Source: a virus
Strand: one strand, 5' to 3'
IMG/VR virus record: IMGVR_UViG_3300045988_165550
Location: 32,001-96,000 of that record
Length of the DNA stretch: 64,000 nt
Below the pieces are notes generated by a model. The model searched no databases and was not told the DNA's origin. It saw only the letters and a list, made by a program, of their open reading frames with translations. The translations under genes were made by a program, and so were the position numbers. Each line of letters opens with the position of its first letter. Position 1 is the stretch's first letter. Positions 1,295 through 46,813 of the stretch are shown here, in pieces.

Positions 1295-2380
1295 ATGAAC
1301 ACAAAACAACAGAATGTTCTTCGCACTCTTTTGAAGAAATATAAATTCAAGAGTGTGAGCAATATAGTCCGCCAGGAACTCGGAATCAATTTCGAGAACT
1401 TCCTACAGAAGACGGAACCCCTCTACGTTATTCCTCGCATCGCTTCCTGCTATGCCGTGGAAGGGGATAAAGAGAAGCTGAACGGTATCATTTACAAGGA
1501 ATGGCTGAAAGATGTGGTAGAAAAAGCCTGGGTAGCTCCTCTTAATGAATACACCGAGGAGTACGGCGAGCGCATCGTTCTCTCTGCCATCTATTACCTT
1601 ATCGACAATGGCTTGTGGGAAACCTACGAAGGTCGCCTAGCCCTGGATGCGCAGGAAGAAAATTACTACGACAAGCTGGAAGATATGCCTTCCGCCATCG
1701 CCATGGTCCAGGAACAGCAGCAAGCCGAGGAGAAGAAAGTTGAGGAGGAGAAAGCCGCAATGCCCCTCACTGGAGCACCTGGCAAAAATCCCCCTCTCGC
1801 TCCCGTTCCCAGCGATTCCATCGCTGGCAAAAAGGAATCCGCCCCAGGCTATACGCTCACCGCCGAAGATGCCGTAGCCCTCATCGGTACCACTTCCGAA
1901 ACCTGCGCTCAGTTGAAGCAGAACATCGAACGCCTGTTTGATTTCATCCGCACCGACAATGATACCGATGTCCTTCGTCAGAAGCTCTCCGACCTGCAGC
2001 GTCAGCTAGAAGCCCAGAAAGCCGAGCACCAAAAAGATATAACCGTCCTTCAGCAGAAAGTCGATGAAGCCAATGCCACTATGCAGAAGGCAAGCAATTA
2101 TATTTCTAAGCTGCGTCAGGAAGCCCAGGAAGTCCAGAAGCAATACGATGAGCTGAATGCCAAATACAAGAAAGCTCTGGATGAGCGTGATGATGCCGAC
2201 AAGGAGTTGGAAACCTGCAAGAAACTTCTCGAAGAGGAAGCCAATCGCGAGCAGCTTCCGAAGAAGAAAATCATCCCATACAGCGTTCTCGATGCCGTTC
2301 CGCTCTTGGGCAAGGGTGTAATGACGGGCTTGGTACCCGTCCTCTCCAAGTACAACATCGTGGTAGATTATAACAAGTAG
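1295..2380 (+). CDS. Hypothetical protein: N-terminal globular part, Pro/Ala linker, C-terminal coiled coil
   Basis: 361-aa ORF. The linker (PLAPVPSDSIAGKK) is encoded by a copy of the 25-nt hairpin element. Confidence 0.75.
   Translation: MNTKQQNVLRTLLKKYKFKSVSNIVRQELGINFENFLQKTEPLYVIPRIASCYAVEGDKEKLNGIIYKEWLKDVVEKAWVAPLNEYTEEYGERIVLSAIYYLIDNGLWETYEGRLALDAQEENYYDKLEDMPSAIAMVQEQQQAEEKKVEEEKAAMPLTGAPGKNPPLAPVPSDSIAGKKESAPGYTLTAEDAVALIGTTSETCAQLKQNIERLFDFIRTDNDTDVLRQKLSDLQRQLEAQKAEHQKDITVLQQKVDEANATMQKASNYISKLRQEAQEVQKQYDELNAKYKKALDERDDADKELETCKKLLEEEANREQLPKKKIIPYSVLDAVPLLGKGVMTGLVPVLSKYNIVVDYNK
1803..1827 (+). repeat. 25-nt hairpin element, copy 1 (inside a CDS)
   Basis: CCGTTCCCAGCGATTCCATCGCTGG, with stem CCAGCGA/TCGCTGG and loop TTCCA. 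Translated in frame as VPSDSIAG. Confidence 0.9.
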
Positions 2381-2388
2381 AAAAGCGT

Positions 2389-3087
2389 ATGGATCAAGGT
2401 ATCATCAATCCGAAGAATTTGTTTCTTTCAAGGGTAGAAAGAAAGGACAATATCGTTCTGATGCCTACTCCTGTTGGCAGACCCGAAGAGTTCGGCTGCA
2501 TAAAATTCAACAACGTCACAGAACGTTTATCGAAGCCCCGGGTAGTAGACCACGCAGAAACGGATGTTGAATTTGTCTTCCGAAACAAGATGGGTAGCGT
2601 TTATGCCGCGGTTTATCACAACGAAAAGGGCGAGGTAATCACAGATATGCTGACTAAGGCGAAAAGCTCTAAGTGGGAGTTTCACAATTTTAAAATCAGT
2701 TTTCTTCCTTGTTTTACGAATGCTTATATCTCGTCGATATATGGCTACAAGCAGATTTCTGAATTGCAGGTTGCGCAGGAATTATCTCGCTTCTTCGCAT
2801 TTGAAGGCGTTAAGTCAGTTATCGGAGATTATTCCATGTTGGCACTCCCCGGTGGCATAGCCGTAGCTCGATGCGTCTTCAAGGATGAGGAAATACTTTC
2901 TGCTGAGTTGTTCGATTTCGTAACATACGAGTCTCTTGATAGGGATGAAATCAAGGACATCTACTATCAGGAGTTCCATCAACACATTTCCGGAGAAGAA
3001 ATGAATATCTCTAATTTCCCCGAAGACTTTCTGAAGGAGATTCTTGCGGATAGTGTAGAGAAGATGCAGAAGAAATGTGATAAATAA
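2389..3087 (+). CDS. Hypothetical phage protein
   Basis: 232-aa ORF. The start carries the recurrent AAGCGTATG junction. Confidence 0.7.
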   Translation: MDQGIINPKNLFLSRVERKDNIVLMPTPVGRPEEFGCIKFNNVTERLSKPRVVDHAETDVEFVFRNKMGSVYAAVYHNEKGEVITDMLTKAKSSKWEFHNFKISFLPCFTNAYISSIYGYKQISELQVAQELSRFFAFEGVKSVIGDYSMLALPGGIAVARCVFKDEEILSAELFDFVTYESLDRDEIKDIYYQEFHQHISGEEMNISNFPEDFLKEILADSVEKMQKKCDK

Positions 3088-3493
3088 AAGAATAGTCTTG
3101 AGAGAATGGAAAAGACAATGGCAAATAAAACAAAACGATATGGATAAAGCAGATTTCGATTATGATTTCTATCTCGTCACGCTCCGCACGGCTGATGCAG
3201 TAGGCATGACGGTAGTGAAGAAGGATGACTTGGCACGTGTCATGGCTATCATTCTCAACGAGGGAGGCAACGAGCAGTTTACCAACAGCTACAAGTTGAG
3301 GGTAGAAATGCAGTTTGCTCAAGAGAAGTATCATATCCGTGGTGGCGAAGCGCCCGACCCTAGATTTGTTCTCCTCTTGCGGCGCTATATCCGGGAGATA
3401 GAAATATATCAGGAGCAGCATAAAGGCGGTTATCCCGACTGGGCAGTAACCCTGATGAAGGATCGCTATGGCATCAAGCTCTATAATTGCTAA
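3077..3493 (+). CDS. Hypothetical phage protein (start uncertain; alternative ATG near 3140)
   Basis: 138-aa ORF overlapping the previous gene by 11 nt. Confidence 0.55.
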   Translation: MINKRIVLREWKRQWQIKQNDMDKADFDYDFYLVTLRTADAVGMTVVKKDDLARVMAIILNEGGNEQFTNSYKLRVEMQFAQEKYHIRGGEAPDPRFVLLLRRYIREIEIYQEQHKGGYPDWAVTLMKDRYGIKLYNC

Positions 3494-3498
3494 AGCTT

Positions 3499-3523
3499 CC
3501 GTTCCCAGCGATTCTATCGCTGG
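3499..3523 (+). repeat. 25-nt hairpin element, copy 2 (intergenic)
   Basis: CCGTTCCCAGCGATTCTATCGCTGG, 6 nt after the stop at 3493. The 3-prime flank GTCCAAAAG resembles that of copy 4. Confidence 0.9.
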
Positions 3524-3554
3524 TCCAAAAGAAAACATCTAGAATAATAAGTAT

Positions 3555-4121
3555 ATGAAAATATTCAAGCTAAAAGAAGGTTCCAAGTCCTACGATTGGG
3601 TAAAGGACGTAATGTCAAAAGAACTCGAAGAAAAGAATGCGTATGGCAGACGAGTTCAAGAAGCGATGGGCATTCCTCTAGGTAATTGCATCTATCGCTC
3701 CGCCAATTTCTGCTATGCCAGAAAAGCGATTATCCATAAGTTCGAGTTTACCTCTGAAGAGTATGCTAAAATGGATAAAGATGTATGGAAGAAGCTTGGC
3801 GGCGGTGAATCTGTCGTATACGTAGTTCCTAGCCCGATAAGCGAGCAGGGCAAGCGTATCAGGGAAGCGATGCAATCATATAACCCCATAACCTGCCATG
3901 CTGAAATTCTTGAAAAGTTGGACTTGAAATCCATTGTTCGAGAAATCGACACTACCCCCGTCAGTCTTTTCACCCACGAGAATAAGTATTACTTCGTCCT
4001 CGCAGATGATAACATCGTTCTTGCCGATGATAACAACGGCGAGATAGAGTTGATAACCGAGGAGGATGCCAAGCGCCTCACCGGTTTCAAAGATGAGCGG
4101 GTAGATTATAGCAAGAAGTAG
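3555..4121 (+). CDS. Hypothetical protein, paralogue of 5716-6237
   Basis: 188-aa ORF. The N-terminus MKIFKLKEGSKSYDWVKDVMSKELEEKNAYGRRVQEAMG aligns by eye with MLYEAKQGTKTYEYIKGILDAEKKEHQVYMERVKEAVG. It has an internal 21-bp tandem duplication (VLADDNI/VLADDNN). Confidence 0.7.
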   Translation: MKIFKLKEGSKSYDWVKDVMSKELEEKNAYGRRVQEAMGIPLGNCIYRSANFCYARKAIIHKFEFTSEEYAKMDKDVWKKLGGGESVVYVVPSPISEQGKRIREAMQSYNPITCHAEILEKLDLKSIVREIDTTPVSLFTHENKYYFVLADDNIVLADDNNGEIELITEEDAKRLTGFKDERVDYSKK

Positions 4122-4149
4122 TAATATAGTTATGGCACTTGAGTAATGT

Positions 4150-4470
4150 TTGGATTTGCAACTTATACTCCTTGCGATATTTGTAATATTCCTTATCGTG
4201 CTGATGGAACAGATAGCAGAGTATATTTATTTTAAAAAGGATAGTAGTATGAAGATAAAGATTATTTCAGTTCGTCTTCCCAGATTCTTTAATGGGGAGA
4301 GACTCCCGAACTTTGCGGATGAGGTGAAATACTTCATCATGTATAAGAAACATTGGTGGCAGAGATACAGATACCTGAATGATCGTTTCACCCGTCCATT
4401 GAAGTTTGATAGCTTTGATGCAGCAAAAGAGTATCTGGAAAAGATAGGTATAGATTATAAGGGAAAATAA
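4150..4470 (+). CDS. Hypothetical small protein, possible N-terminal TM helix (TTG start in the track; ATG at MKIKII is an alternative)
   Basis: 106-aa ORF. The hydrophobic N-terminus LQLILLAIFVIFLIVL is present only if the TTG start is used. Confidence 0.45.
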   Translation: MDLQLILLAIFVIFLIVLMEQIAEYIYFKKDSSMKIKIISVRLPRFFNGERLPNFADEVKYFIMYKKHWWQRYRYLNDRFTRPLKFDSFDAAKEYLEKIGIDYKGK

Positions 4471-4472
4471 CT

Positions 4473-4922
4473 ATGGCAAAGAAAGAAGATCCAATGAAAG
4501 AACCGGCAGAAGAATATGCAGGTTTAGGTAAGGAAGTCTTCATCTGTAAGAGAAAGAACTTCGGCAATCCTTCCCTGTGGCACAAAGTCTCTCTTGCTGA
4601 TGACAGCACAGTTTCTATCCCAAGCGATTCTGCCACAGGTAAGCAAACGAGTAAGAAAAAGCCCCGTAGTTTCACCGGCACTTTCATACTGGTAGATGAT
4701 AAAGAAGCACGATATGAAGCTCAGATGTTAGCAGTAACGGTATTGCCAGTATTCAGCAAGTCTATGCTATCCATCACCATGCCTCATGTGCCATTTGAGA
4801 TGCGGAACGATTTTACGAAATTATATCGCAACCCTAACAATTTCTTCTATAAGGAATTGGCCAATAGTTTATCTTATCCTATTCGTCTTGCCTATCGCGG
4901 TTTTATCACAGTTCAAAAGTAA
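4473..4922 (+). CDS. Hypothetical phage protein
   Basis: 149-aa ORF starting 2 nt after the previous stop. Confidence 0.6.
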   Translation: MAKKEDPMKEPAEEYAGLGKEVFICKRKNFGNPSLWHKVSLADDSTVSIPSDSATGKQTSKKKPRSFTGTFILVDDKEARYEAQMLAVTVLPVFSKSMLSITMPHVPFEMRNDFTKLYRNPNNFFYKELANSLSYPIRLAYRGFITVQK

Positions 4923-4927
4923 GTAAT

Positions 4928-5362
4928 ATGGCAGAAAAGAAAGTGTTAACCATTCACCTAACCGATGAGTGGTATCAGAAGATAGCTAGCGGAGAGAAGA
5001 CAGAGGAATATCGGGAATGCTCCTTATACTGGACGGTACGTCTTTTAAGAAAGGATGTTCCGAATAGGCCAGACGTGATAGCTGGCGTAGCCAAATATCA
5101 TCGTGCTGCCGATAGAGGCCTTTTTGTGCAAGGCTATCTCACCGGAGGACTCAAACACACTTCGGATAGTCCGGAAGATAGAACTTACCGCAAGGAGGTA
5201 TTGGAGCCTTTCACTCACGTTCATTTTCTCCTTGGTTATCCGAAAGATAATCAACCGTATATCGAGAAGGAAATCGACGAGATAACGGTAGATAAACCAA
5301 AGAAGGGTATGTGCCCAGATAATTGGTTAAAAAAGAATATGTTCGTAATCAGATTCAAATAG
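4928..5362 (+). CDS. ASCH-domain-like protein
   Basis: The N-terminus KKVLTIHLTDEWYQKIASGEKTEEYRE resembles the ASCH/PUA-like beta-barrel signature (GxKTxExR). Confidence 0.5.
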   Translation: MAEKKVLTIHLTDEWYQKIASGEKTEEYRECSLYWTVRLLRKDVPNRPDVIAGVAKYHRAADRGLFVQGYLTGGLKHTSDSPEDRTYRKEVLEPFTHVHFLLGYPKDNQPYIEKEIDEITVDKPKKGMCPDNWLKKNMFVIRFK

Positions 5363-5370
5363 ATAAGCGT

Positions 5371-5508
5371 ATGAAAGAAAGTCTTAGAAATTATTATTAT
5401 CACCCGGAATTTACAATGATGGACAAGTCCTTTATGATGATTCCTACTCCGAAAGATTTCGGGCAGTATTTGCAGAATATAAAACGTAATAGGAGAAGAA
5501 AGAAATGA
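5371..5508 (+). CDS. Small basic protein (45 aa)
   Basis: I trimmed the start to the ATG in the AAGCGTATG junction, directly after the stop of the previous gene. C-terminus is KRNRRRKK. Confidence 0.4.
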   Translation: MKESLRNYYYHPEFTMMDKSFMMIPTPKDFGQYLQNIKRNRRRKK

Positions 5509-5762
5509 CGTTAGAGTTATCAATGGAGGAAAAGATAATCGTAACCGTTCTTTGGGTGTTCACGATATTCTTCCTGGTGTTGTTTTCTGGAATATTTGAA
5601 GGTGGGCATGAGCCTATAAAGCCGCCGGATATCCCGCCACCGCCGCCTCCATCTCGCCCTCATCCTCTGCTATTCCGCCGCAGATTAAGATTAAGAACTA
5701 AAAAACGAAGAAGATATGTTGTACGAAGCAAAACAAGGAACAAAGACTTACGAATACATTAA
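5505..5762 (+). CDS. Small membrane protein with polyproline and poly-basic tail
   Basis: TM helix IIVTVLWVFTIFFLVLFSGIF, then PPDIPPPPPPSRPHP, then an RRRLRLRTKKRRR tail. Overlaps the next gene by 47 nt. Confidence 0.45.
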   Translation: MTLELSMEEKIIVTVLWVFTIFFLVLFSGIFEGGHEPIKPPDIPPPPPPSRPHPLLFRRRLRLRTKKRRRYVVRSKTRNKDLRIH

Positions 5763-6237
5763 GGGTATTCTTGATGCGGAGAAAAAGGAGCATCAGGTTT
5801 ATATGGAGAGAGTAAAAGAAGCTGTGGGTTTCGAGTTCGATGATTACCTATGTTGTCTAGCTAACGACAGCAATGATCGAAAAATCGAAATATCCTATAT
5901 CTGGGTGCCTTTTAAACAATGCGAAACACTAGATAACAAGGCATGGCGAGTAATAGATTGGGATAAACGAGAGGACGGCCGATATGTAGCTATAGTGCCC
6001 AATAAGCGCTATAAGCAAGGAAGGCTGTTAGCTAGCGTACTCGACTCCTATAAATCTCTCATCGGAAAAGATGAGATAATAAAGGAATTGGGAATAGATG
6101 TATCTCATGTTAGTCCTTTTGGTAATAAAATTATGCTCTTTCGTCGTAAGGACTGCATTTTCGTTTCTTTTGATGATCGTGCCCGAGTCGAAGAGTGTAA
6201 TCTTGATTTCAAGAAAGTCGAGATAGAAGGATATTAG
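5716..6237 (+). CDS. Hypothetical protein, paralogue of 3555-4121
   Basis: 173-aa ORF with N-terminal similarity to the 3555-4121 product, by eye. Confidence 0.7.
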   Translation: MLYEAKQGTKTYEYIKGILDAEKKEHQVYMERVKEAVGFEFDDYLCCLANDSNDRKIEISYIWVPFKQCETLDNKAWRVIDWDKREDGRYVAIVPNKRYKQGRLLASVLDSYKSLIGKDEIIKELGIDVSHVSPFGNKIMLFRRKDCIFVSFDDRARVEECNLDFKKVEIEGY

Positions 6238-6270
6238 GATTTTATTAATAGTGATAAAAGAAAATAGCGT

Positions 6271-6855
6271 ATGTTCATAGTAACAAACCCTCTCTTGGTA
6301 TTTCTGTTCGTGTTCTTAGTAATGATTATATTTGTAATCTGTGATAAGATAAAAGAAGAAAGATCTTACAGATTAAGTCATAGGCTTTGGGCAGGAGAGG
6401 AGAAATGCCAATGGGACATAGAATCTCAGTTCATTACTGGAGACTTGGTATCAATAGACTGCCATCGTATATATGAAGTTTTGGGGCGTATTTCTGAAAC
6501 GGAATATCTAGTCACCTATAATCGGCTTCTTAAAAAAGGGCATATTGTCGTGCATGTATCTAACATAAATGGTCTTAGAATTACTCCTGACAAATTGATG
6601 CAAGCAGGTTTTTCTTGTCCAGATTTTGTTGATCCGAAAGAAATGCGTTATGATGTGCCTTATAAAAAGGTATTCAAAAAGGATGGAACTGAAGTTATAA
6701 TAACTCGTAGTCCCAAGAGCACTATGCTAAGAAATTATTGGAATGTTCATTTAGAACATTATGATTTTGTTACTCCGTCCAAAAAAGATATTGTTTACAT
6801 CCACGAGTTGCAGCATTTTCTTTTTGGCCTAGGTCTTAATTATCGAGAAGAATAA
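6271..6855 (+). CDS. Hypothetical membrane-anchored protein
   Basis: 194-aa ORF with N-terminal TM helix LLVFLFVFLVMIIFVI. Start lies in an AAATAGCGTATG junction. Confidence 0.65.
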   Translation: MFIVTNPLLVFLFVFLVMIIFVICDKIKEERSYRLSHRLWAGEEKCQWDIESQFITGDLVSIDCHRIYEVLGRISETEYLVTYNRLLKKGHIVVHVSNINGLRITPDKLMQAGFSCPDFVDPKEMRYDVPYKKVFKKDGTEVIITRSPKSTMLRNYWNVHLEHYDFVTPSKKDIVYIHELQHFLFGLGLNYREE

Positions 6856-6929
6856 TTTTTAAAGCGTATGAAAGAAGAAGAGCGTGCAGCCTTGGCTGCG
6901 AGATTAAAATAATAAAAACATTAAAGATT

Positions 6930-7175
6930 ATGGCATGTAATTGTATTAGCAGAGTTGAAAAACTTATCAAGGAGAAGACCAACGAGAGTGGTTGCCTTGA
7001 TACAGGTATCGGTGTTCCATCGGGCATTGCGATGGTAAACATTTATGGTTTGTTCCATAAACAGAAGAAGGATGGTTCCTTCTGCGAAAAGTGGAACAAG
7101 GTCAATATCCTCCCCGAGTATTGTCCTTTCTGCGGGAAGAAATATGTGGAGGATAAAAAGGAAGATGTTCAATAG
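6930..7175 (+). CDS. Small zinc-ribbon-like protein
   Basis: 81 aa with CNC near the N-terminus and CPFCG near the C-terminus. Confidence 0.5.
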   Translation: MACNCISRVEKLIKEKTNESGCLDTGIGVPSGIAMVNIYGLFHKQKKDGSFCEKWNKVNILPEYCPFCGKKYVEDKKEDVQ

Positions 7176-7195
7176 AAAAAAACGAGAAATAGCGT

Positions 7196-7813
7196 ATGAA
7201 AAAATATTATGAAGATGAAAAAAATGCGGATCATTCCGTTATTCATCTGATGTTAAATACAAATTGTGATAATCATTGCATGTTGTGTTGTAATGACCAA
7301 TACGTTTTAAGTTCTGTTCCGGTTGTAACGGTAGAGGAACTTAACAACGCTAAAACGGTGTTGCTGACAGGTGGTGAACCTTTCAAGATTCCGTACTTTG
7401 CTGATTTCGTGCAAAATCTGCGAGGTCAATATAAAAACATAGAAAACCTTTATGTTTATACTTCTGGATATTCTATGTACCACAACTTAGAGCAGTGGAA
7501 CAAAAATGAGGTTTATACTGATATTGATGGCGTAAACATCTCACCTAAAGGAACCAATCGTGAGCGTTGGGCTATACAAGGTATGTTAGGGAAGAATGCG
7601 TTGGATATTTTCTTTCAGATATTTGCTTCCATGAAAAGCTGCAGGCTTATCTTAATGGACCGCAAGGAGAAAAATGACGAGCTTCTTTCTACTCTGAATC
7701 TTCAGCAATTCCGAGACCTTGGTGTCCGTTTCGATGTAGAGTATCGTGATTGGCAGAACAAATTTCAGCCTAATGGCGGGGTGTGGAGAAGATTACCTAT
7801 ATTGTTAAATTAA
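7196..7813 (+). CDS. Small radical-SAM enzyme of unknown substrate
   Basis: CxxxCxxC cluster CDNHCMLC and SAM-binding LLTGGEPF. At 205 aa it is in the minimal size class of QueE/NrdG-like activases. Confidence 0.75.
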   Translation: MKKYYEDEKNADHSVIHLMLNTNCDNHCMLCCNDQYVLSSVPVVTVEELNNAKTVLLTGGEPFKIPYFADFVQNLRGQYKNIENLYVYTSGYSMYHNLEQWNKNEVYTDIDGVNISPKGTNRERWAIQGMLGKNALDIFFQIFASMKSCRLILMDRKEKNDELLSTLNLQQFRDLGVRFDVEYRDWQNKFQPNGGVWRRLPILLN

Positions 7814-7825
7814 ATAAGCAAGCGT

Positions 7826-8401
7826 ATGACACAAGAAGAATATATATCCTTGACTGCAAGTCAGAACGTTCTGAAGGAGATTCAGAAAGAATATCCTGGC
7901 AAGACGATAGATAATATTATTCAGCAGATAGGAGAAAGATTAAAGCATAGCGGACATACGTGCTGCTCTTATCCTACCACCTACAAAAATTGCTATAGAT
8001 TTGAATGCTGGATTCACGATAGAAGTGAACTACCCGATGGTAGCGGCAGAAGAATTACTCTCGAAATCAAAAACAGAAGCAACACTGCACGCACTTTAAT
8101 GGTATTTGACCAGACTTATGATCCTATAGCAAAGGAACCTGTATGCGGTTATATCCGTGGGTTTTCCGTTGATGAAGAGGTGCGGCAGAAAGGTATCGGT
8201 TCGGAAATGCTTAGACGGCTTGAAAATCAAGCAAGAGAAATAGGCGTTCATGTTCTGCTCATTGAAAATGAAATCAAGCCTACTTCGGGTTCATGGGCAG
8301 ATGAATGGCTTTCCGGCAAGGGCTATCATTCTGATGCACCTGGTGACACTCGTCTGTATCATTATCAAATGATGTACAAAAGATTAGTTGATAGTTATTA
8401 A
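7826..8401 (+). CDS. GNAT-family N-acetyltransferase with an N-terminal extension
   Basis: Acetyl-CoA motif A, VRQKGIGSEMLRRLENQAREIG. Confidence 0.7.
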   Translation: MTQEEYISLTASQNVLKEIQKEYPGKTIDNIIQQIGERLKHSGHTCCSYPTTYKNCYRFECWIHDRSELPDGSGRRITLEIKNRSNTARTLMVFDQTYDPIAKEPVCGYIRGFSVDEEVRQKGIGSEMLRRLENQAREIGVHVLLIENEIKPTSGSWADEWLSGKGYHSDAPGDTRLYHYQMMYKRLVDSY

Positions 8402-8412
8402 AACGATTGCGT

Positions 8413-8871
8413 ATGAAGATAAAGATAGAACAGATAAAGGAGAAGATTGCAGGGTTTATCTTTGACCTTATCATAGAATCGGGCAGTAAGTCTAAATTCT
8501 TCCGTAAGTACACCAACCATCGTTTTCGTAAGCAGTACGAACGATTGACGGGTAATGCCGCTTGTAGGATGTATAAACGCAACAGCGATTTGGAAAGAGA
8601 GATTATCAAGCTGCGTGAAAAGATTAATACTTTGAAGTGTAGACTTCGTTCAGCTTATAATAAAATAAAAGTCGTAGCTACGGAGTACCCTAAAAACATT
8701 CCGTGTCCTCACGGAGAAAAGGATGAGATAAACCATGACCCTGTCAGAACAGATTCCGTTGAATGCTGGTGCTGCCCAGGTTTCGTAGACAGAGTACCCG
8801 AAGATGGTACCATCATCTGCTGGAATAAGAACTTTGAGCAGAGTGAGGATTTAGAGAATAAAGAAAAATAG
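8413..8871 (+). CDS. Hypothetical protein: coiled coil plus a C-terminal Cys/His cluster
   Basis: Start trimmed to the ATG of the GCGTATG junction. Contains CPHGEKDEINHD...ECWCCPGF. Confidence 0.6.
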   Translation: MKIKIEQIKEKIAGFIFDLIIESGSKSKFFRKYTNHRFRKQYERLTGNAACRMYKRNSDLEREIIKLREKINTLKCRLRSAYNKIKVVATEYPKNIPCPHGEKDEINHDPVRTDSVECWCCPGFVDRVPEDGTIICWNKNFEQSEDLENKEK

Positions 8872-8914
8872 CGAAGAGTAATAGTCAGTAACAAAGAAAT
8901 TAATAGAAAAAGAT

Positions 8915-9739
8915 ATGGCAAAGAATAACGATTATCTTGTAAAAGCAAAAGAGTACCTAGCCGCAATGAAGACTATGTACAACCTAGAGCAGTTGGCAGA
9001 TGGGGTTCGCCCTGATAAATACAAGTACATCTGTCAAAAGTATGGTATTGATGAGAACGAAGCCATGAATATGTACTCTGTTCTTCAGAAGATGAAGAAG
9101 GAATATTATATGGTGAACTATAAGAAATCGGCAGCTTTGGAGCGCGTCCTGGCTATTGCTGAGGAAGCCTATGTTACCTATAATCATGATCGTGTCGATT
9201 TTTACGTAGAACTACACTCCCCTGAAACAAGATACAAGTATATTCTTGTAAGTTTCCGCAAACCAGGCGAAAAGTTGGTTCAACAGGAGTTCAATATAAC
9301 AGACCCGAAAACCTTTCCGGCTGTCACCGACATGATGAATAGCGGTTTCGAGATTGTCGGTATGTCACGACAGGCAGACGAGATAGAAAGTACAAAGTAC
9401 GATGGAGTCGATGACGATAGAAGGATTTACATCCCTATTTATGATGGCGACGTGCTTCTCTGCTACTTAGAGAATCCTGACAGTATTTTCTCTCATCATA
9501 AAGAATGTGGTCTCTATCTCTGCCATGCTGGTGTTTATCATCGCCTCGTCTATACTCCTGGTAAAGGATACGTAAGACATCATAAGCCAGATGAGGATGA
9601 AGATTTCGAGTTGGATATTAGCGAAGAGTCTTTCAGTCAGTACGTCTTGACATTATCCAAGAAATTCCGTAAGTTAGGTAACATCCATTCCGGCATCGGT
9701 TTCCTCATGGAAGAAGATAACAAGGAAGAAGAGAAATAG
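8915..9739 (+). CDS. Hypothetical phage protein
   Basis: 274-aa ORF with start context AAAAGATATGGCAAAG. Confidence 0.7.
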   Translation: MAKNNDYLVKAKEYLAAMKTMYNLEQLADGVRPDKYKYICQKYGIDENEAMNMYSVLQKMKKEYYMVNYKKSAALERVLAIAEEAYVTYNHDRVDFYVELHSPETRYKYILVSFRKPGEKLVQQEFNITDPKTFPAVTDMMNSGFEIVGMSRQADEIESTKYDGVDDDRRIYIPIYDGDVLLCYLENPDSIFSHHKECGLYLCHAGVYHRLVYTPGKGYVRHHKPDEDEDFELDISEESFSQYVLTLSKKFRKLGNIHSGIGFLMEEDNKEEEK

Positions 9740-9742
9740 CGT

Positions 9743-10090
9743 ATGACAAAGCAAGAATTGTTATCTACCCCTGCCTTTCAAAATGCAAGGGATGATGCTT
9801 TTATCTATCTAGTTGCATGGATTGATGACGGCCCATGGATAAGACATATTTCAGCTCCTAAGAAGGAAGATCAAACCCAGGACTGCATTTGTTTTCGCTC
9901 ATTCGAACCAGCGATTAGTAAAATACGCCTGTTAACAAATCCTTCTTTTCGTCATTCTAGGGGAGATAAGGTTTTAACCTTTCAATACTTGTATGGTTGG
10001 CATAAAACAGGAAGATGTGATGTTGATATTGACTCAGACGGCGATATTATCATTAGAGAGAAATTAAAAGAAGAAGATTATGCAGAATAA
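9743..10090 (+). CDS. Hypothetical phage protein
   Basis: 115-aa ORF with start in an AAATAGCGTATG junction, where TAG is the stop of the previous gene. Confidence 0.6.
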   Translation: MTKQELLSTPAFQNARDDAFIYLVAWIDDGPWIRHISAPKKEDQTQDCICFRSFEPAISKIRLLTNPSFRHSRGDKVLTFQYLYGWHKTGRCDVDIDSDGDIIIREKLKEEDYAE

Positions 10091-11066
10091 AGAAGGAACT
10101 CCCGTAAAAGGAGCATTGATTTACCAGCCGCAGGGTGCGGCTGGTGAATATGCTAAGTGGGCAATCAATCTATATCATGGTTGCTCTAACGGCTGCACAT
10201 ATTGTTATAACCGCAGAGGTGTGTTGAGTCACGTCTTCGGCGATAAGCCGGAACTGGCGGCACCTATCATTAAGCAGCGAGATAAGCAGCTCAATGAATA
10301 TCTGAAGAAAAACAATATGACTGCACATGATGCTATTAAGAAAGGTGTTGTGGACCATGAAAGTCTCGTTGCCACCCATGCTCTTATCTCGAAGGATTTA
10401 AAGAAGATAGGAATAGATAAACTACGTCAGGATGGCGGTATCTTCTTCTCTTTCACTTGCGACCCATTCGATATAGAGGCAGATATGCTTATCCTGCATG
10501 GGACGGTTTTACATTTACTATTCGACCGTATTCCGGTCACGATATTAACAAAAAACGTAAATTGGTCGCAGACTGATTTGTGGAAGTGTACACTTCGAGA
10601 CCTTACAACAGATTATAAGGATATAGCCCGCCACCTCACCATCGGTTTTACTATCACTGGCAAAGATAAGTTTGAGCCAGGTGCTCCTTCTACAGAGAAG
10701 CGTATCGAAGCCCTGCGTAAGCTGCACGATGAATACAAGATTAAGACCTTTGTGTCTTTAGAGCCAATAACGAGTATTCATACCGCATCGGAAGTAATCA
10801 AGAAAACATATCAGATTACGGACGAGATACGCTTTGGTGCCCAGTCGCCTATCAAGAAGGACAGATATGATCCGAACGAGTTTGTCGGTTTCGTTATCGC
10901 GATTAAAACCCTGGCACGCGGTCTTGATTGCCGTTTCATGGTAAAGGATAGTATGTATAAGCAGGCAGAAACTTTTGAAGGTGCTTATAGAAATTTGTGT
11001 GTCAGAAATCTCGATGAGATAAGAAAGATTTATGAATCAAAACAAAAAGAAAATTATGAAAAGTAA
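10080..11066 (+). CDS. Radical-SAM enzyme of the SplB/DNA-photolyase-like (COG1533-type) class
   Basis: YHGCSNGCTYCYN matches the GCxxxCxYCY cluster motif of that class. 328 aa. Confidence 0.7.
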   Translation: MQNKEGTPVKGALIYQPQGAAGEYAKWAINLYHGCSNGCTYCYNRRGVLSHVFGDKPELAAPIIKQRDKQLNEYLKKNNMTAHDAIKKGVVDHESLVATHALISKDLKKIGIDKLRQDGGIFFSFTCDPFDIEADMLILHGTVLHLLFDRIPVTILTKNVNWSQTDLWKCTLRDLTTDYKDIARHLTIGFTITGKDKFEPGAPSTEKRIEALRKLHDEYKIKTFVSLEPITSIHTASEVIKKTYQITDEIRFGAQSPIKKDRYDPNEFVGFVIAIKTLARGLDCRFMVKDSMYKQAETFEGAYRNLCVRNLDEIRKIYESKQKENYEK

Positions 11067-11694
11067 ATTGAAGTATTACGCTCAGGTTATAGGCGTTAAC
11101 CTGTTGGCTATATTAGTACCCCTCCTCGCCGTTGTCCTTATCTATGGCTTCGGCAAGTTAAAGAATACCTATACCCATCCTTGCGTTCTATCGCAGGAGA
11201 TATACGATTGCTGCTTAGAGGCGACTATCGTGGTATTGGCTGGTTTCTCCGTAGGTCTCCTGCTCGTTGGCTGGGCTGATAGCTGGCGAAAAACGAAGCT
11301 CAGAGTTCTAAAGGGCAAAAGAGAGCGTGAGGAATTAGAATTGCGTGTCAAGTTAGAGGTAGAGCCTATTGAGGAGAGAACGGAGCAGAAGAATACGCTT
11401 GCGCTTGGCGATTCCGAGTTTGAGGATATTTCCGGATTGACGGTTAAAGAGATTTGGGAACTCTATAAAGGGCGTGAGATAGATCTTTTAGGTGGTAATT
11501 TTTTTATTGCTGGTTACGACGAAGAGCCTAGCTTTGTTGTTGTCGGTACTAAGTTAGTTCAACCTAGCATAAGTTACGACGAGATGGTAGAAAGAATGGC
11601 TAGTAAAAATCCCGATAAGTGGCATGTAGAAAAAGGTTATGCAGATTACGGAACGCTTTCCACCAAATACATCCACATCTATAAAAAGAAATAA
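11056..11694 (+). CDS. Membrane protein (two predicted TM helices)
   Basis: Start trimmed to ATTATG at 11056. TM segments are VIGVNLLAILVPLLAVVLIYGF and ATIVVLAGFSVGLLLVGWA. Confidence 0.6.
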   Translation: MKSKLKYYAQVIGVNLLAILVPLLAVVLIYGFGKLKNTYTHPCVLSQEIYDCCLEATIVVLAGFSVGLLLVGWADSWRKTKLRVLKGKREREELELRVKLEVEPIEERTEQKNTLALGDSEFEDISGLTVKEIWELYKGREIDLLGGNFFIAGYDEEPSFVVVGTKLVQPSISYDEMVERMASKNPDKWHVEKGYADYGTLSTKYIHIYKKK

Positions 11695-11712
11695 TAACTA
11701 AGCATAGAAGCT

Positions 11713-12045
11713 TTGGCAGCACCCAAAAGTAATTACAAAACGTTTTACGCCAATCTTTATTATACAAACCCATCGGCATGCGAAGGTAAAACATACTTTA
11801 TGCGTCCTATCCCAGAACACATGAAGCAGTTTCTCTCCGTTGTTGATGCGGATGCAGCTATAGCGCAAGTTCTAGTTTTTGCGAAGGCTCATCCCGATTT
11901 TTGTATGAAAAGGTTATGCGTGGTAACGTCTTTCTATACCAAGAAGGACAATTACAATTACCGTACAGATTACCAGTGGTACAGATGGAATAAAACTTCG
12001 CATAAATTTGAACGAGATGAATACCAGAAAAATGTGCATTGGTAA
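11713..12045 (+). CDS. Hypothetical protein (TTG start in the track; true start uncertain)
   Basis: 110-aa ORF in the co-directional array. Confidence 0.4.
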   Translation: MAAPKSNYKTFYANLYYTNPSACEGKTYFMRPIPEHMKQFLSVVDADAAIAQVLVFAKAHPDFCMKRLCVVTSFYTKKDNYNYRTDYQWYRWNKTSHKFERDEYQKNVHW

Positions 12046-12080
12046 TAAAGATATATTGAAAAGAATAATGAAGAATAGTT

Positions 12081-13242: not shown

Positions 13243-13263
13243 TGATTAAAAGATTTATAGATT

Positions 13264-13911: not shown

Positions 13912-13933
13912 TTATTTTAAAACAATAAAAAAT

Positions 13934-15157: not shown

Positions 15158-15192
15158 TAAGAAATAATACATTTAATCATTTACTAAGTATT

Positions 15193-15552: not shown

Positions 15553-15585
15553 GTTCATTGTCCCGCCCATCAAAAAATAATGTAT

Positions 15586-15593
15586 TACCTTTG
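15586..15593 (+). promoter_or_regulatory. Bacteroidota -7 box
   Basis: TACCTTTG, 25 nt upstream of the ATG at 15618. Confidence 0.6.
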
Positions 15594-15617
15594 CAAACAG
15601 AAAAAGAAGTATAGTAT

Positions 15618-16398: not shown

Positions 16399-16405
16399 TA
16401 TCGTC

Positions 16406-31241: not shown

Positions 31242-31264
31242 GTCTGCGGATTTCAAATCCGCAG

Positions 31265-31995: not shown

Positions 31996-32030
31996 CAGCA
32001 GTTTTAGAAAAGAAATATAATAGTTAAGGT

Positions 32031-39510: not shown

Positions 39511-40809
39511 ATGGCAAATCTTCCTAAAGATTTTATCGGCACATCAGCTCTTGAGCACGTAGCCGAGCAGGTGAGCAAGGAAATCCTCATGGGTCCAGGC
39601 TACACCGATGCAGAGGAAATGGATCGCCTCGGCATTCAGGTTATCAGTGGTGTGCAGTTTAAGCGCACTTTCAACATCTTCCTCCGTAAGGGTGGTACTA
39701 CCCGCCGTAAGGATGTTCACGCTAAAGTGAGCAGCCAGGCAGGATTCCTCAAGGAGCGTACTTTGACAGTGAAGCTTACTTGGGACCACTTTGACGATAA
39801 CATCGATAACTACTGCGAGACACCTTTCGGTACAGACGCACAGGGTCAGTATCCTCTCTCTACCCAGGCTGCAGAGGCTATCCTGAAGGATTACGCCGAC
39901 AACCTTACAGCTTGCTTGTGGTTCGGTAATATTGACCTCGATAACGGCGATGAGACCGTTCCTGCAAAGGATCAGGCTCTTGCATTGTATGATGGTTATC
40001 ATACCTGCGTAAAGCACGACATCGAGGATGGTCTTATCTCTGAGGCTAACGGCAACCTTATCCAGTGTGATGCCATCGAGGAGCCAGCCGACAACAACGA
40101 CTCTACTCCATTCGATAACTTCATCGACTGGTACTTCAAGTGGGATGCTCGTCTGCGCAAGCAGCAGGTAATGGTCTATATGAACGAGTCTACTGCCCGC
40201 AACATCGCCGCCGGTTACGCTAACAAGTATCACGGCAACTTCAAGGTAGAGACTGAGGCAGGTGACAACTTTAAGTTGCCAGGTTACTCTAAGGTAACTA
40301 TCTGTCCTGTATCAGACTTTGGTACTGGCGATCGTATGTATGCTACTGTAAAGGGCAACTTCGTTTACGGTGTTGATACAGAAAGCAACAAGACTTTCAT
40401 CAGCGTTCGTGTAGGCTCTGACACCGACCACAGAACCATCTCTTTCCAGATTCAAAGTATTCAGGGTGCAGGTATTAAGGTGCCATTCTCTAGCAGCATG
40501 GTTGTCAGCCCAGGTAAGCTTGATAACCCAGGCTACAAGGCTGGTGATTACACCGACTCTAACCTCACCGTTACCCTCGCAAAGAACAGCACTGCTGATG
40601 CAGGTGAGATTGATGGTAGCGTAAAGGTTAATGACAAACCTTACGATAAGCCAGTTGACACCAAAGCCAACGACGTGCTGACTCTTGAGGCAGTAGATGG
40701 TACCAACTTCGCCTTCGACCACTGGAGCAACGGCAGCAAGGAGAAGAAGATCCAGGTAATCGCCAGTGGCACAAGCATGGCTTACACCGCCTTCTTCAAG
40801 AAAGCCTAG
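39511..40809 (+). CDS. Major capsid protein, with a possible C-terminal InlB-B-repeat-like surface domain
   Basis: 432 aa, immediately after the protease-scaffold gene. The C-terminus LTLEAVDGTNFAFDHWSNGSKEKKIQVIASGTSMAYTAFF resembles the GYxFxxW...A.F repeat fold. Confidence 0.65.
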   Translation: MANLPKDFIGTSALEHVAEQVSKEILMGPGYTDAEEMDRLGIQVISGVQFKRTFNIFLRKGGTTRRKDVHAKVSSQAGFLKERTLTVKLTWDHFDDNIDNYCETPFGTDAQGQYPLSTQAAEAILKDYADNLTACLWFGNIDLDNGDETVPAKDQALALYDGYHTCVKHDIEDGLISEANGNLIQCDAIEEPADNNDSTPFDNFIDWYFKWDARLRKQQVMVYMNESTARNIAAGYANKYHGNFKVETEAGDNFKLPGYSKVTICPVSDFGTGDRMYATVKGNFVYGVDTESNKTFISVRVGSDTDHRTISFQIQSIQGAGIKVPFSSSMVVSPGKLDNPGYKAGDYTDSNLTVTLAKNSTADAGEIDGSVKVNDKPYDKPVDTKANDVLTLEAVDGTNFAFDHWSNGSKEKKIQVIASGTSMAYTAFFKKA

Positions 40810-40825
40810 CCTTCTCCTGCCCCCC

Positions 40826-40850
40826 CCGTTCCCAGCGATTCCATCGCTGG
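40826..40850 (+). repeat. 25-nt hairpin element, copy 4 (17 nt after the capsid TAG, preceded by C8)
   Basis: CCGTTCCCAGCGATTCCATCGCTGG. Its VPSDSIAG frame is in phase with the capsid ORF. Confidence 0.9.
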
Positions 40851-40959
40851 TCCAACAGGCAAAAAGGCAGTCCTCTATAAATCCTCGGCGGCGGTCGCCT
40901 GACCTGGCGGAATATGGCTTCCGTCGCCATTTCGTTTAATCATCAAAAAAGATACAATT

Positions 40960-41538
40960 ATGGCAGAAACAGTAACATGCCCAGAGATCAAGGATTTGCT
41001 TTCCGAGAACGATTGCTTGGAAAACTTCGGCGGTCTTGGCGTAAACGTATATGTCTTTATCAAGAGTGAGCTTGCTGCTCCTCTCTCACCAGAGAAAGGT
41101 AAGAACACCTATGCAGCGCTGACTGCTGCGTCCTTCAAGAAAGGTAAGGGTCTCTACAAGTTTGAGTGCCAGGATGGCGGTCAGGGTCACACCTGGGAGA
41201 ACCTCGGTTTCCAGAAAGGCTTCAAGCAGACCTTGGACTACGTTCTTGAGAGCGTAAATGCCGATACTGCTTATGTGGCTCGTGGTCTCAATAACCTCAA
41301 GTGTGGTTATATCATCGAGGACGGTGATAAATCAATCATCGTTTACGACAAGCAGCACGACTTCAAATACGACTCCGGTAATATTAAAGGAGACACGGGC
41401 AAAAAACCAGAAGATGATCGTGTAGTTACACTGAGCGGTTCCCTCAGTCCGACAACTTTCGGCCGTTATGAGATTGCCGCACCAGAAAGTGGATGGGATT
41501 CTCTCTGTAATGGCGCAGGCACAGCGGGGGAAGTGTAA
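40960..41538 (+). CDS. Hypothetical structural protein (head decoration or tail tube candidate)
   Basis: 192-aa ORF after the capsid gene, followed by a terminator. Confidence 0.6.
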   Translation: MAETVTCPEIKDLLSENDCLENFGGLGVNVYVFIKSELAAPLSPEKGKNTYAALTAASFKKGKGLYKFECQDGGQGHTWENLGFQKGFKQTLDYVLESVNADTAYVARGLNNLKCGYIIEDGDKSIIVYDKQHDFKYDSGNIKGDTGKKPEDDRVVTLSGSLSPTTFGRYEIAAPESGWDSLCNGAGTAGEV

Positions 41539-45109: not shown

Positions 45110-45117
45110 TATCTTTG
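45110..45117 (+). promoter_or_regulatory. Bacteroidota -7 box
   Basis: TATCTTTG, 34 nt upstream of the ATG at 45151. A weak hairpin AAGCCTC/GAGGCTT lies at 45042-78. Confidence 0.6.
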
Positions 45118-45150
45118 CCATCAGAATAAAAACGATAAAACAGAAAAGAT

Positions 45151-45705
45151 ATGGCAAAGATTCAACCTCTTGCAGATTTCATTCTCTCCTTCGAGGGAGG
45201 TTACGTGAACCACCCCAACGATAAGGGTGGTCCTACCAACATGGGCGTAACATTGAAAACCTGGCAAACCCAAGGTTACGACAAGAACCATGATGGCCGC
45301 ATAGACGCAAAGGACGTGAAGCTTATCACAAAAGCCGATGCTATCTCCATCCTTCGCCGTTGCTACTGGAACCGATGGAAAGCCGATGGCATCAAAGACC
45401 AGAGCATCGCCAACATCCTGGTAGATTGGGTATGGATCAGCGGCACACCAGGCATCACCCTCGTACAGGCTATGCTGGGCGTAACCGCCGATGGTATCGT
45501 AGGCAACAAAACTCTCAAGGCGCTCAATAGCCAGAACCCTAAGCGGTTTTTCGAGCGCATCAAGGCACGCCGCAAGCAATACATCGCTAGAGTCATTGCC
45601 CTGTGCCCTAGTCAGAAGGGCTTCGAGGCAGGCTGGCTCCGTCGTCTCAATGCTATCAGTTACGGCAGTCTTATCTCCAATAATGGCAAAGAAATAAAGT
45701 GGTAA
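45151..45705 (+). CDS. Endolysin: GH108 lysozyme domain plus a PG_binding_3-type domain
   Basis: ILSFEGGYVNHPNDKGGPTNMGVT is the GH108 N-terminal signature. The length and C-terminal half fit the usual two-domain architecture. Confidence 0.85.
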   Translation: MAKIQPLADFILSFEGGYVNHPNDKGGPTNMGVTLKTWQTQGYDKNHDGRIDAKDVKLITKADAISILRRCYWNRWKADGIKDQSIANILVDWVWISGTPGITLVQAMLGVTADGIVGNKTLKALNSQNPKRFFERIKARRKQYIARVIALCPSQKGFEAGWLRRLNAISYGSLISNNGKEIKW

Positions 45706-45706
45706 T

Positions 45707-46813
45707 ATGGAAGCAAAGATAAACCTCACCATCCCGAAAAGCTGGAACCAATGCACCCCCACCCAGCTAGAGCAGATAGCCCTTATCATGCTGGAGCAGA
45801 TAGAGAAATCCAAGGCAGACCGCTATCACCCTTTCGATATGCAGAAGGTGAAAGTAGCCGTCTTCTTTCTCTTTGCCGGGATAAGCATCAACACCTATCC
45901 CGACCCCCGTCTGCCCATCAATGAGCAGCACTACCTGGTAAGCATAGAGCCGCAAAAAAAGAGCCTCCTGAAGAAGTTCCTCTCCCTCTGCGCCACCGTT
46001 CCCAGCGATTCCGTCGCTGGTACCAAATCGGCTATCCACTTTCCCCTCTATCTTTGGCAGCTCAACTATTGGCTCTCCCCAAAAGCTAAGACCGATGATA
46101 AAACCTCCCCAGAGTACATCGCTCAGGGCGCAGGTCTTCTCGATTGGCTGGATGCAGATAGTGGCTATTTCCTCACCCGCTTCCCCTATCCGATTATCGG
46201 ACAGAAAGCCAAGTGGTATCGTCGTGCAAAAGCCTTCCGTGGTCCGAACCCAGACCTCGATGGCTTCTCCTGGCAGCAATACCGTTTTGCCAGCGATATG
46301 ATGCAGACCTACACCCGTTTGGATAACAACCTGATAAAGATGAAGAAGATGAATAAATTCACCGAGGAACAACTCCAGACGCAAGCCCAGAGTGTAGCCA
46401 GCGCCAGAAACATGTTCCTTGCCACCATCTTCAACACCACCACCCAGTACATCGACCCGGCAACAGGCATCACGAAATACGATTTTCACTACGAGTCAAA
46501 GCAGTTCACCGAGAACGCAGGTTATTTCGTCAAATATCCGGAAGCCAACTGGCAGGTCATCCTCTTCTGGTGGAGCGGCATCATGCACACCCTAGCCCGT
46601 CGCTACCCTCACGTATTCAAGGTGCAGAAGGTAGATAATAAGAAGCCGCAAACCCCGATGGAAATCTACACCGCCACCACCGCTACGATGCAGAAGTATG
46701 CCGGCTTAACGGAAGATCAGGTCAACACTCAATCCTATTCCCTCGTTCTCGAACACCTCGAAAGGTTATCGAAAGAGAATGAGGAAATGGAAAAGATGAG
46801 GAGAGAAAAATGA
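45707..46813 (+). CDS. Hypothetical protein; contains hairpin element copy 5
   Basis: 368-aa ORF starting 1 nt after the endolysin stop. Confidence 0.7.
   Translation: MEAKINLTIPKSWNQCTPTQLEQIALIMLEQIEKSKADRYHPFDMQKVKVAVFFLFAGISINTYPDPRLPINEQHYLVSIEPQKKSLLKKFLSLCATVPSDSVAGTKSAIHFPLYLWQLNYWLSPKAKTDDKTSPEYIAQGAGLLDWLDADSGYFLTRFPYPIIGQKAKWYRRAKAFRGPNPDLDGFSWQQYRFASDMMQTYTRLDNNLIKMKKMNKFTEEQLQTQAQSVASARNMFLATIFNTTTQYIDPATGITKYDFHYESKQFTENAGYFVKYPEANWQVILFWWSGIMHTLARRYPHVFKVQKVDNKKPQTPMEIYTATTATMQKYAGLTEDQVNTQSYSLVLEHLERLSKENEEMEKMRREK
45996..46020 (+). repeat. 25-nt hairpin element, copy 5 (inside a CDS)
   Basis: CCGTTCCCAGCGATTCCGTCGCTGG, translated in frame as VPSDSVAG. Confidence 0.9.

Follow-up and report, generated by a model that had tools for sequence, protein, structure and literature searches.

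Why should a phage genome carry a short hairpin at several scattered sites, always on the same strand, and hold two of these copies inside genes in one and the same reading frame? The question is raised by positions 32,001 to 96,000 of the IMG/VR virus record IMGVR_UViG_3300045988_165550 (64,000 nucleotides, here called the window). A first-pass annotation of this DNA had reported five exact plus-strand copies of a 25-nt element. A search with the pattern CCGTTCCCAGCGATTCYRTCGCTGG, allowing up to three mismatches, agreed with this: it matched only at 1803, 3499, 31873, 40826 and 45996, all of these matches were exact and on the + strand, and no match was obtained in 100 shuffles of the sequence. 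We consider it probable that the hairpin belongs to a repetitive extragenic palindromic (REP)-type family of the gut bacterium Segatella (Prevotella) copri, seeded by a host HuH enzyme and with a role in RNA on the sense strand.

A covariance model was built on 102 family members and used to scan both strands of the window. The five exact copies scored 46.7–53.2 bits. A sixth copy was added on the + strand (E 3.7e-10), variants similar to it having been part of the training set of the model, and the rest of both strands was at noise. The copies are listed here by the coordinates of the whole unit, with the open reading frame (ORF) in which they lie, if any.

Copy 1: 1797–1832, + strand; core 1803–1827, hairpin 1809–1827, loop TTCCA; in ORF 1295–2380; 46.7 bits.
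Copy 2: 3493–3528, + strand; core 3499–3523, loop TTCTA; intergenic; 53.1 bits.
Copy 3: 31867–31902, + strand; core 31873–31897, loop TTCCG; intergenic; 48.4 bits.
Copy 4: 40820–40855, + strand; core 40826–40850, loop TTCCA; intergenic; 53.2 bits.
Copy 5: 45990–46025, + strand; core 45996–46020, loop TTCCG; in ORF 45707–46813; 52.6 bits.
Copy 6: 48419–48454, + strand; diverged, GTTC TCTGCGG TTCAA TCGCAGG; in ORF 47810–49627; 38.7 bits.

The conserved unit, as seen in 152 unique viral copies, is about 32–36 nt and thus longer than 25 nt, extending from a G at -6 to a C at +25, where positions are counted from the G that opens the GTTC head. The consensus of these copies consists of a C/T-rich, G-poor lead followed by G-C-C-Y-C-C-GTTC-CCAGCGA-TTCYA-TCGCTGG-T-C-C, in which the GTTC head is unpaired, the stem measures 7 bp, and TTCYA and TCC form the loop and the tail. 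The related flanks pointed out in the first-pass annotation, GTCCAA and GGCAAAAAGG, are present but stand at different offsets, and fit a general TCC tail followed by an A-rich tract. Membership of a longer duplicated segment was rejected: the flanks of the copies fail to align with each other past about 36 nt, and the copies are therefore not parts of a longer ordinary duplication.

The 7-bp stem CCAGCGA/TCGCTGG and the 5-nt loop were perfect in all five exact copies. The predicted minimum-energy structure was the hairpin in the 65-nt context of each, the stem alone having a predicted energy of about -12 kcal/mol. Across 102 distinct copies of the family, 96.5% of stem cells were paired. Two-sided stem changes were found in 24 cells, compared with 2.4 in shuffles, and the covariation score of the stem was 0.164 compared with 0.059; none of 500 shuffles reached the observed value of either. 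In controls in which the stem was slid, pairing dropped to 20–43% and the covariation score was at most 0.088. Compensatory variants of the stem were CGAGCGA/TCGCTCG, CCTGCGA/TCGCAGG, CCGGCGA/TCGCCGG, CAGGCGA/TCGCCTG and CAAGCGA/TCGCTTG. The earlier description of a constant stem with variation only in the loop holds for the five exact window copies but not for the wider family, in which the stem does vary, mostly by compensatory pairs. The stem of copy 6 is preserved by two changed pairs plus G.U pairs, and the same variant is conserved in loci L022, L035, L039, L054 and L073. Judged from the aligned copies, the compensatory changes show that the repeat forms a true hairpin. Its very strong sequence conservation points to sequence-specific recognition, to recent spread, or to both. 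Searches of Rfam 15 at gathering score gave no family in the window, and a search at E up to 10 around one host copy gave just sub-threshold chance matches.

Two observations concern the hairpin as a structure. Comparison of the orthologous host loci L133 and L132 showed an inverted loop (TTCCA to TGGAA), and at host locus L156 (7890–7930) a copy has grown into a perfect palindrome of 16 bp, the GTTC head being part of it. The loop inversions and the extended palindrome suggest hairpin-driven template switching.

An exact-pattern scan located the motif in IMG/VR contigs of 33–110 kb (at least 118 stretches) and in genome contigs (at least 120 stretches). The latter were overwhelmingly from S. 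copri / Prevotella, with the motif at many unrelated chromosomal sites; the few matches in other phyla look like chance, because their loops and flanks are unrelated. As the scan places the unit throughout S. copri, the phage hairpin is likely to be the dispersed repeat of the host, and S. copri is on this comparison the likely host of the phage. All copies of a viral stretch holding several were on one strand. Little or no translated similarity to the window was seen in 54 of the 118 listed viral stretches, so the motif may extend beyond one phage lineage, some of the 54 being unseen parts of the same genomes or perhaps prophage flanks. No relatives were found among INPHARED phages by a near-identity search with the window or by tblastn with the protein of ORF 39511–40809, and within INPHARED the motif occurred in only one record, an unannotated faecal 'Bacteriophage sp.'. 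Our literature search found no paper with the hairpin sequence, and a preprint on the S. copri transcriptome (10.1101/2024.04.05.588293) does not mention the repeat. Contigs L205, L225, L231, L193 and L234, assigned to the metagenome-assembled genome 'uncultured Prevotella sp. UMGS1972', carry orthologues of copies 1 and 4 with flanking phage genes, which suggests that a relative of this phage was binned with, or is integrated in, that genome.

All fetched DNA, including the window and about 1 Mb of viral loci, was screened for ORFs with an HuH...Y motif. The only match came from the S. copri locus L178; the window and the viral loci gave none. The protein has 375 amino acids with the motifs PDHIH and YLDDNP, is conserved throughout the S. 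copri complex and has more than 1200 database relatives. Both motifs were invariant in 24 sequences from the S. copri complex. In 42 distant members, sampled from a wider family of 2136 representatives, the D, H, H, N and P columns were invariant and the catalytic Tyr column was at least 90% conserved. With its internal insert removed, the S. copri protein matched the NCBIfam model REP_Tyr_transpos (NF047646) at E 4e-9, and this model was matched by all 42 sampled members (best E 1.1e-15). Pfam Y1_Tnp was reached at 18.4 bits, compared with a cut-off of 23. Searching the PDB by phmmer with the trimmed protein returned nothing and a family profile was needed for a match; the profile found ISDra2 TnpA (2XM3) at E 1.4e-5, along with other IS200/IS605 TnpA structures. 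The C-terminal half of the family is conserved and weakly DprA-like.

The surroundings of the gene link this candidate enzyme to the repeat. It occupies a syntenic chromosomal site with the same neighbours in three independent assemblies, and in all three there are near-identical hairpins about 110 nt upstream of the gene, inside it between HuH and Tyr, and about 55 nt downstream. The gene and a distant homologue are located as follows.

L239, 4001–5128: HuH gene of S. copri; hairpin copies at about 3865, about 4347 and about 5184.
L354, 2236–3309: distant HuH homologue with 36% identity, next to rpoBC on another Bacteroidales contig.

The internal copy of the S. copri gene is read as GGQAMESLGTEA, and all three hairpins of the locus are antisense to the gene and have the stem variant CAAGCGA/TCGCTTG. 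The homologue has the same layout with a hairpin of its own, GTTC-GGCGAT-tgt-ATCGCC, at 2060, 2611, 2680 and 3328, which shares with the S. copri hairpin the GTTC head and a GCGAT..ATCGC core. An HuH gene embedded in the same hairpins is good circumstantial evidence, at the level of gene arrangement, for a partnership of the type formed by REP elements and REP-associated tyrosine transposases (RAYTs). We also observed that the linker following the internal hairpin copy of the S. copri protein consists of variable tandem peptide repeats, protein lengths ranging from 375 to 447 aa.

The position of the copies relative to genes was then compared between host and phage. Host copies scored against long ORFs fell into co-directional gaps in sense (65) or antisense (2), convergent gaps (19), divergent gaps (2) and the inside of ORFs (7), and their median distance to the upstream stop was 51–78 nt. 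In co-directional gaps of viral loci, 105 copies were sense and none antisense. Among seven copies placed on the complete HDD04 chromosome, the strand alternates six times along the molecule, a misfit with an orientation set by replication. In the window, the ORF coordinates bear out the assignment of 3499, 31873 and 40826 to intergenic positions. The GTTC head of copy 2 begins 7 nt past the stop of ORF 3077–3493, with 31 nt between its stem end and the ATG of ORF 3555–4121. Copy 4, an orthologue of which is held by locus L225, begins its head 18 nt past the TAG of ORF 39511–40809, and 109 nt separate its stem end from ORF 40960–41538. Copy 3 lies in the 880-nt gap between the tape-measure gene and a primase-like ORF, 133 nt ahead of the ATG of the latter; it is the sole window copy with a weak T-rich tail (TTTCCTCTCT) and is flagged by a terminator scan.

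The flanks upstream of the hairpin are rich in C (0.44–0.52) and poor in G (0.12–0.14). A T-tract, defined as five or more T among the 8 nt that follow the stem, was rare (3 of 115 copies in the host and 17 of 202 in viral DNA), in line with the earlier remark that the element is not a canonical terminator, and a canonical (Rho-independent) terminator was rejected on account of this rarity. Some host copies precede a separate canonical terminator (L183, L188, L124), and many lie about 40 nt ahead of the next co-oriented ATG (42 nt in one example). Rare T-tracts, separate terminators and nearby downstream ATGs together indicate a sense-strand feature of 3′ or intercistronic sites rather than a canonical terminator. 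The usual host context is (GGTAAAAR)n-AGAGCC, then C-rich CCCCTTTGYR-like units, then CCCCC-GTTC-hairpin-TCCCC. Inverted pairs were seen at about 7 of about 100 host loci, and most of them consisted of the 3′ copies of a pair of convergent genes, with a terminator in between.

The first part of this context is a second intergenic module of host and phage. The (GGTAAAAR)n-AGAGC module begins at or right after stop codons and stands just 5′ of the hairpin in S. copri (L133 6950–6990, L165 5420–5500). It also occurs in hairpin-free sister phage clades (L338 2895–2960, 4030–4070), and is absent from the window.

Two of the exact copies are within the following genes.

1295–2380, + strand: ORF holding copy 1; 361-aa coiled-coil protein, function unassigned.
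45707–46813, + strand: ORF holding copy 5; 368-aa protein, function unassigned, conserved across a large group of uncultured gut phages.

Copy 1 is read ...APVPSDSIAGKK... in a hypervariable linker and copy 5 is read ...CATVPSDSVAGTK..., confirming that both encode VPSDS(I/V)AG. In 31 loci with orthologues of the 361-aa ORF, VPSD[SF]IAG was found in the hypervariable linker at identities of at least 72% (72–97%) and was absent at 57–60%. Orthologues of the 368-aa ORF at 77–96% identity likewise had a motif-containing segment of about 24 aa, which was absent from all at 57–63%, and the DNA inserted in this ORF includes a host-like upstream part (aaaaaagagcct...ctgcgccacc). Because the motif is missing from distant orthologues, copies 1 and 5 are both insertions into variable linkers.

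The insertion in the 361-aa ORF, the one measured, is constrained as nucleotides. Its stem codons CCC, AGC, ATC and GCT were each represented by one codon in 25 orthologues, and within the motif only the loop and the base that follows the stem varied. Outside the motif, only 20% of 173 invariant amino-acid columns had a single codon, the mean being 2.05 codons. The frozen stem codons therefore point to constraint on the nucleotides and not the peptide. Conservation of VPSDSIAG at the protein level, which the first-pass annotation had raised as a way in which relatives might keep the peptide by unrelated nucleotides, was rejected by this codon analysis, as the orthologues keep the nucleotides themselves. 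The common reading frame recurs elsewhere. Counting the two window ORFs, a C-terminal tail in L257/L268 and the host loci L139 and L220, no fewer than four or five independent copies inside ORFs share it, and it is used by 19 of the 24 in-ORF sense copies in viral loci; copy 6, read SPFSAVQSQV, is in another frame than the remaining in-ORF copies. With the C-rich flanks, the shared frame gives a Pro/Ser/Ala-rich peptide, and the other frames give FPAIPSL and SQRFHRW. Comparison of the peptides of the three frames suggests that tolerance best explains the shared one.

Copy number turns over among related phages. Relatives of 75–97% identity differ in whether they have extra copies, for example in front of the 361-aa gene, and one site has the motif in place of a variable C-terminal tail. 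Comparison of filled and empty sites upstream of the 361-aa gene showed replacement of the variable tail, with no recognisable terminal inverted repeats or target-site duplication. Sister clades of 57–63% identity had no copies in 244 kb, compared with six in the 64-kb window. A search of the motif-free sister clades for another repeated hairpin gave none within 7-kb loci, just gene-start boxes and the (GGTAAAAR)n module. The copy after ORF 39511–40809 and the copy in ORF 45707–46813 were kept across dozens of contigs.

The results can be brought together in a model in which the HuH enzyme would recognise and cleave the GTTC head plus hairpin in single-stranded DNA, and would seed further copies of the unit elsewhere, among other places in phage DNA during its replication in the cell. 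Copies would persist where the transcript tolerates them or profits from them, either sense after a stop codon or in a frame giving a harmless Pro/Ser/Ala-rich linker peptide. In mRNA, the hairpin of about -12 kcal/mol and its C-rich flanks could work as a 3′-end or intercistronic element, acting as a barrier to 3′ exonucleases, as a modulator of Rho-type termination or decay, or as both, and might so set the relative expression of neighbouring genes, for instance after the putative head gene. Among the explanations offered at first, a miniature mobile element of the REP/MITE (miniature inverted-repeat transposable element) kind gains support on its REP side from the host's own dispersed family and its candidate HuH transposase, and a nuclease or recombination target would be compatible with cleavage by the HuH enzyme. 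The sense-only orientation could also owe something to preferential insertion into the non-template strand, which is exposed, as an alternative to selection on the transcript.

Several observations weigh against this model. The 4-nt head is unpaired and conserved, but reads GTTC where described REP superfamilies have GTAG or CGTC, and most units stand alone instead of forming REPIN doublets. No clean insertion boundary or target-site duplication could be defined in the filled/empty comparison. As regards the enzyme, the scores on record for family members with NF047646 are at most 51.4 bits, compared with a curated cut-off of 80; the family profile matched E. coli TnpArep (4ER8) at just E 0.75; an AlphaFold2 model of the protein was unusable (predicted local distance difference test score 38); and the CAAGCGA/TCGCTTG variant is almost confined to the HuH locus and rare elsewhere. 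Single stem changes were G.U-compatible in 18 cases and A.C in 17, so wobble pairs fail to separate RNA from DNA. What suggests a role in RNA is strand, position and constraint only, what suggests S. copri as host is shared sequence, and the host density used below is a rough estimate from the fetched host loci.

Other explanations were weighed against the same data. The hairpin might be a host 'self' signal in cis, GTTC and hairpin being recognised by a factor of the host, either the RAYT-like HuH/DprA-like protein or one that binds RNA or acts in its decay; phages would be selected to keep it, would exploit it for mRNA stability, processing or protection of single-stranded DNA, and would move the REP family between S. 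copri lineages. A host factor of this sort is possible, but the reading as a whole seems to us rather unlikely. We also think it improbable that the copies are pure passengers, selfish REP insertions seeded by the host enzyme at harmless sites and with no role in the phage. They do sit in intergenic gaps or disordered linkers, their number fluctuates among relatives, and sister clades manage without them; however, the stem nucleotides of ORF 1295–2380 are invariant in 25 orthologues in which other synonymous sites have diverged, two copies persist across the dozens of contigs mentioned above, and the density in the window (1 per 10.7 kb) exceeds the rough host estimate (about 1 extra copy per 32 kb among the matches listed). 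Recombination was considered in the form of 30–36-nt units that would serve as short homologies for exchange of phage modules or between phage and host, like the T4-type stem-loop cassettes that flank shuffled genes. At copy 2, which may mark a mosaic junction, 11 relatives share the downstream flank only next to a copy and 3 share both flanks. Conservation profiles shift abruptly at copies 2 and 4, in an analysis confounded by incomplete loci, and the loop inversions and palindrome extension implicate the hairpins in template switching. Yet at copies 4, 5 and 6 the flanks on either side were conserved in every relative tested (13, 58 and 18 loci, respectively), and the strict sense-strand orientation in the host is left unexplained, so that we regard a role mainly as recombination linker as quite unlikely. 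Passenger and recombination linker may each be partly true.

A host-type terminator or attenuator without mobility, Rho-dependent through the C-rich, G-poor flanks or else intrinsic, and evolved or borrowed by the phages, would account for a sense-strand element just past stop codons, for the composition of the flanks, and for the minority of copies with a T-tract, among them copy 3 with its terminator call. That minority is small, however, many host copies lie shortly before a co-oriented ATG or have a separate terminator after them, copies inside ORFs would be polar, and the hairpins that bracket and interrupt the HuH gene in two lineages are unexplained; we give this explanation a slim chance. 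A hairpin recognised by a DNA- or RNA-binding protein of the phage was also proposed at the outset. Such a site, with a part in replication, packaging or late regulation, would fit copies that are all on one strand and the presence of one of them in an iteron-rich region before the primase-like gene. As originally put it is very unlikely, since the identical unit is found at more than 100 intergenic sites of host chromosomes and in viral stretches dissimilar to the window, and is missing from sister phage clades whose gene set is the same. We attach the least weight to a solitary repeat derived from CRISPR (an RNA anti-CRISPR) or another mimic of host defence RNA. A hairpin of about 32 nt resembles some class 1 CRISPR repeats, and the phage copies are co-oriented with transcription; but in the host loci listed there are no arrays, at most two copies per 8 kb and never a regular spacing, the host copies are ordinary 3′ or intercistronic inserts, and no Rfam family matches. 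On these grounds a CRISPR-derived repeat was rejected.

The window itself is phage DNA, as indicated by a 2095-aa tape-measure protein, an S49-type head-maturation protease, tail proteins and a primase-like ORF. The label of the last (32031–33149) was borne out by its matches to BT4734-like_N and PriCT_2, domains typical of Bacteroidota elements. ORF 39511–40809, called capsid in the first-pass annotation, matched no PHROG or Pfam family; from its place downstream of the S49 protease we regard it as a putative head protein. No tRNA or tmRNA was found in a scan of the window. The region 4000–22000 has a G+C content of 0.37–0.43, compared with 0.44–0.50 elsewhere in the window, and holds the only sizeable blocks of minus-strand genes (16440–18443 and 20282–22711); hairpin copies are absent between 3.5 and 31.9 kb. 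The gap between the tape-measure gene and the primase-like ORF (31147–32030, 880 nt) contains about seven copies of a 14-nt box, TTTGGTCCCATTTT / AAAATGRGACCAAA, in both orientations, and two exact ATTTAGTGGGCTTTT repeats spaced by 27 nt. These boxes look like an iteron or operator array, possibly a replication origin.

S. copri is among the most prevalent human gut bacteria, and its repeat content and phages are poorly described. Carriage of the repeat by a phage clade at an apparently higher density than in the host (both figures being rough), together with the constraint seen within at least one phage ORF, suggests either that phages exploit some function of it or that they offer it a way to spread horizontally. 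The RAREFAN preprint (10.1101/2022.05.22.493013) regards REP/RAYT systems as chromosomal, vertically inherited partnerships. If the 'self' signal reading were true, REP/RAYT would be part of the interaction between phage and host, and not purely chromosomal and vertically inherited. In practical terms, the motif is a compact marker for host prediction of uncultured gut phages, and a ready test case for the function of REP hairpins in Bacteroidota, public differential RNA-seq being available for strain HDD04.

Among known systems the closest in kind is REP/REPIN with RAYT (TnpA_REP) of Enterobacteria and Pseudomonas. Common to both are a short palindrome with an unpaired 4-nt head, dispersal in high copy number, extragenic sites with a preference for the 3′ sides of genes and avoidance of divergent promoter gaps, and an HuH/Y1 gene flanked by the same hairpins. 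REP elements are also known for effects at the RNA level (protection of mRNA 3′ ends, attenuation) besides their mobility at the DNA level. The element described here differs in its GTTC head instead of GTAG, a stem of just 7 bp, units that are mostly single and not inverted doublets, an orientation almost strictly sense, a much longer protein (300–375 aa, with a weakly DprA-like C-terminal half) distant from curated RAYT models, and its additional carriage and conservation in phage genomes.

A closer parallel in one respect is RAYT subclass 2.4 of Bacteroidetes and Cyanobacteria, in which in-frame REP insertions are found between HuH and Tyr of the tnpA_REP gene (PMC6006769). The S. copri gene is alike in its in-frame hairpin between HuH and Tyr followed by variable short repeats, in the further copies that flank it, and in the phylum (PMC6006769). 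Proteins of subclass 2.4 have a mean length of 194 aa and the motifs NH[IFV]H and YIxNNP, and their REPs are long, with a GT[AG]G head or a 'double foot' (PMC6006769). The S. copri protein, compared here by its features, is twice as long, has DHIH and YLDDNP, and is associated with a short GTTC-headed REP. Linkers of unrelated genes have likewise been reported to contain REP insertions (PMC6006769; PMC3733652).

The CGTC-tagged palindromic repeats of Di Nocera et al. 2013 (PMC3733652) resemble the hairpin in their 8–9-bp stem, 4–5-nt loop and 3-nt unpaired tail, in the occurrence of intragenic units and of some families in Bacteroidetes, and in a pyrimidine-rich head resembling (C)GT(T)C. Here the head is one T longer, and the stem starts without the A-T pairs typical of CGTC families; moreover, CGTC repeats are mostly head-to-head dimers with no associated transposase gene, whereas a candidate exists for the present family. 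Rickettsia palindromic elements (RPEs) and other in-ORF REPs share the in-frame insertion into genes, in surface loops or linkers. RPEs are bacterial and about 100–150 bp, whereas the unit here is about 36 nt (the inserted segment reaching about 70 nt) and lies in phage genes, with the nucleotides rather than the peptide constrained. The subterminal hairpins of IS200/IS605 elements (IS608, ISDra2) are comparable in being recognised on one strand by a Y1 HuH enzyme, as proposed here for the S. copri hairpin, and in having copies in the same orientation on both sides, and ISDra2 TnpA is the best structural-sequence match of the S. copri HuH family; unlike these elements, the gene stays at one syntenic site in three assemblies while the hairpins are dispersed on their own, which is REP-like. 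The system is thus of a known, REP/RAYT-like kind. As far as the searchable literature shows, its GTTC head, short stem, singleton and sense-only layout and long HuH protein with a DprA-like tail are new, and so, above all, are its carriage and conservation in a clade of phages.

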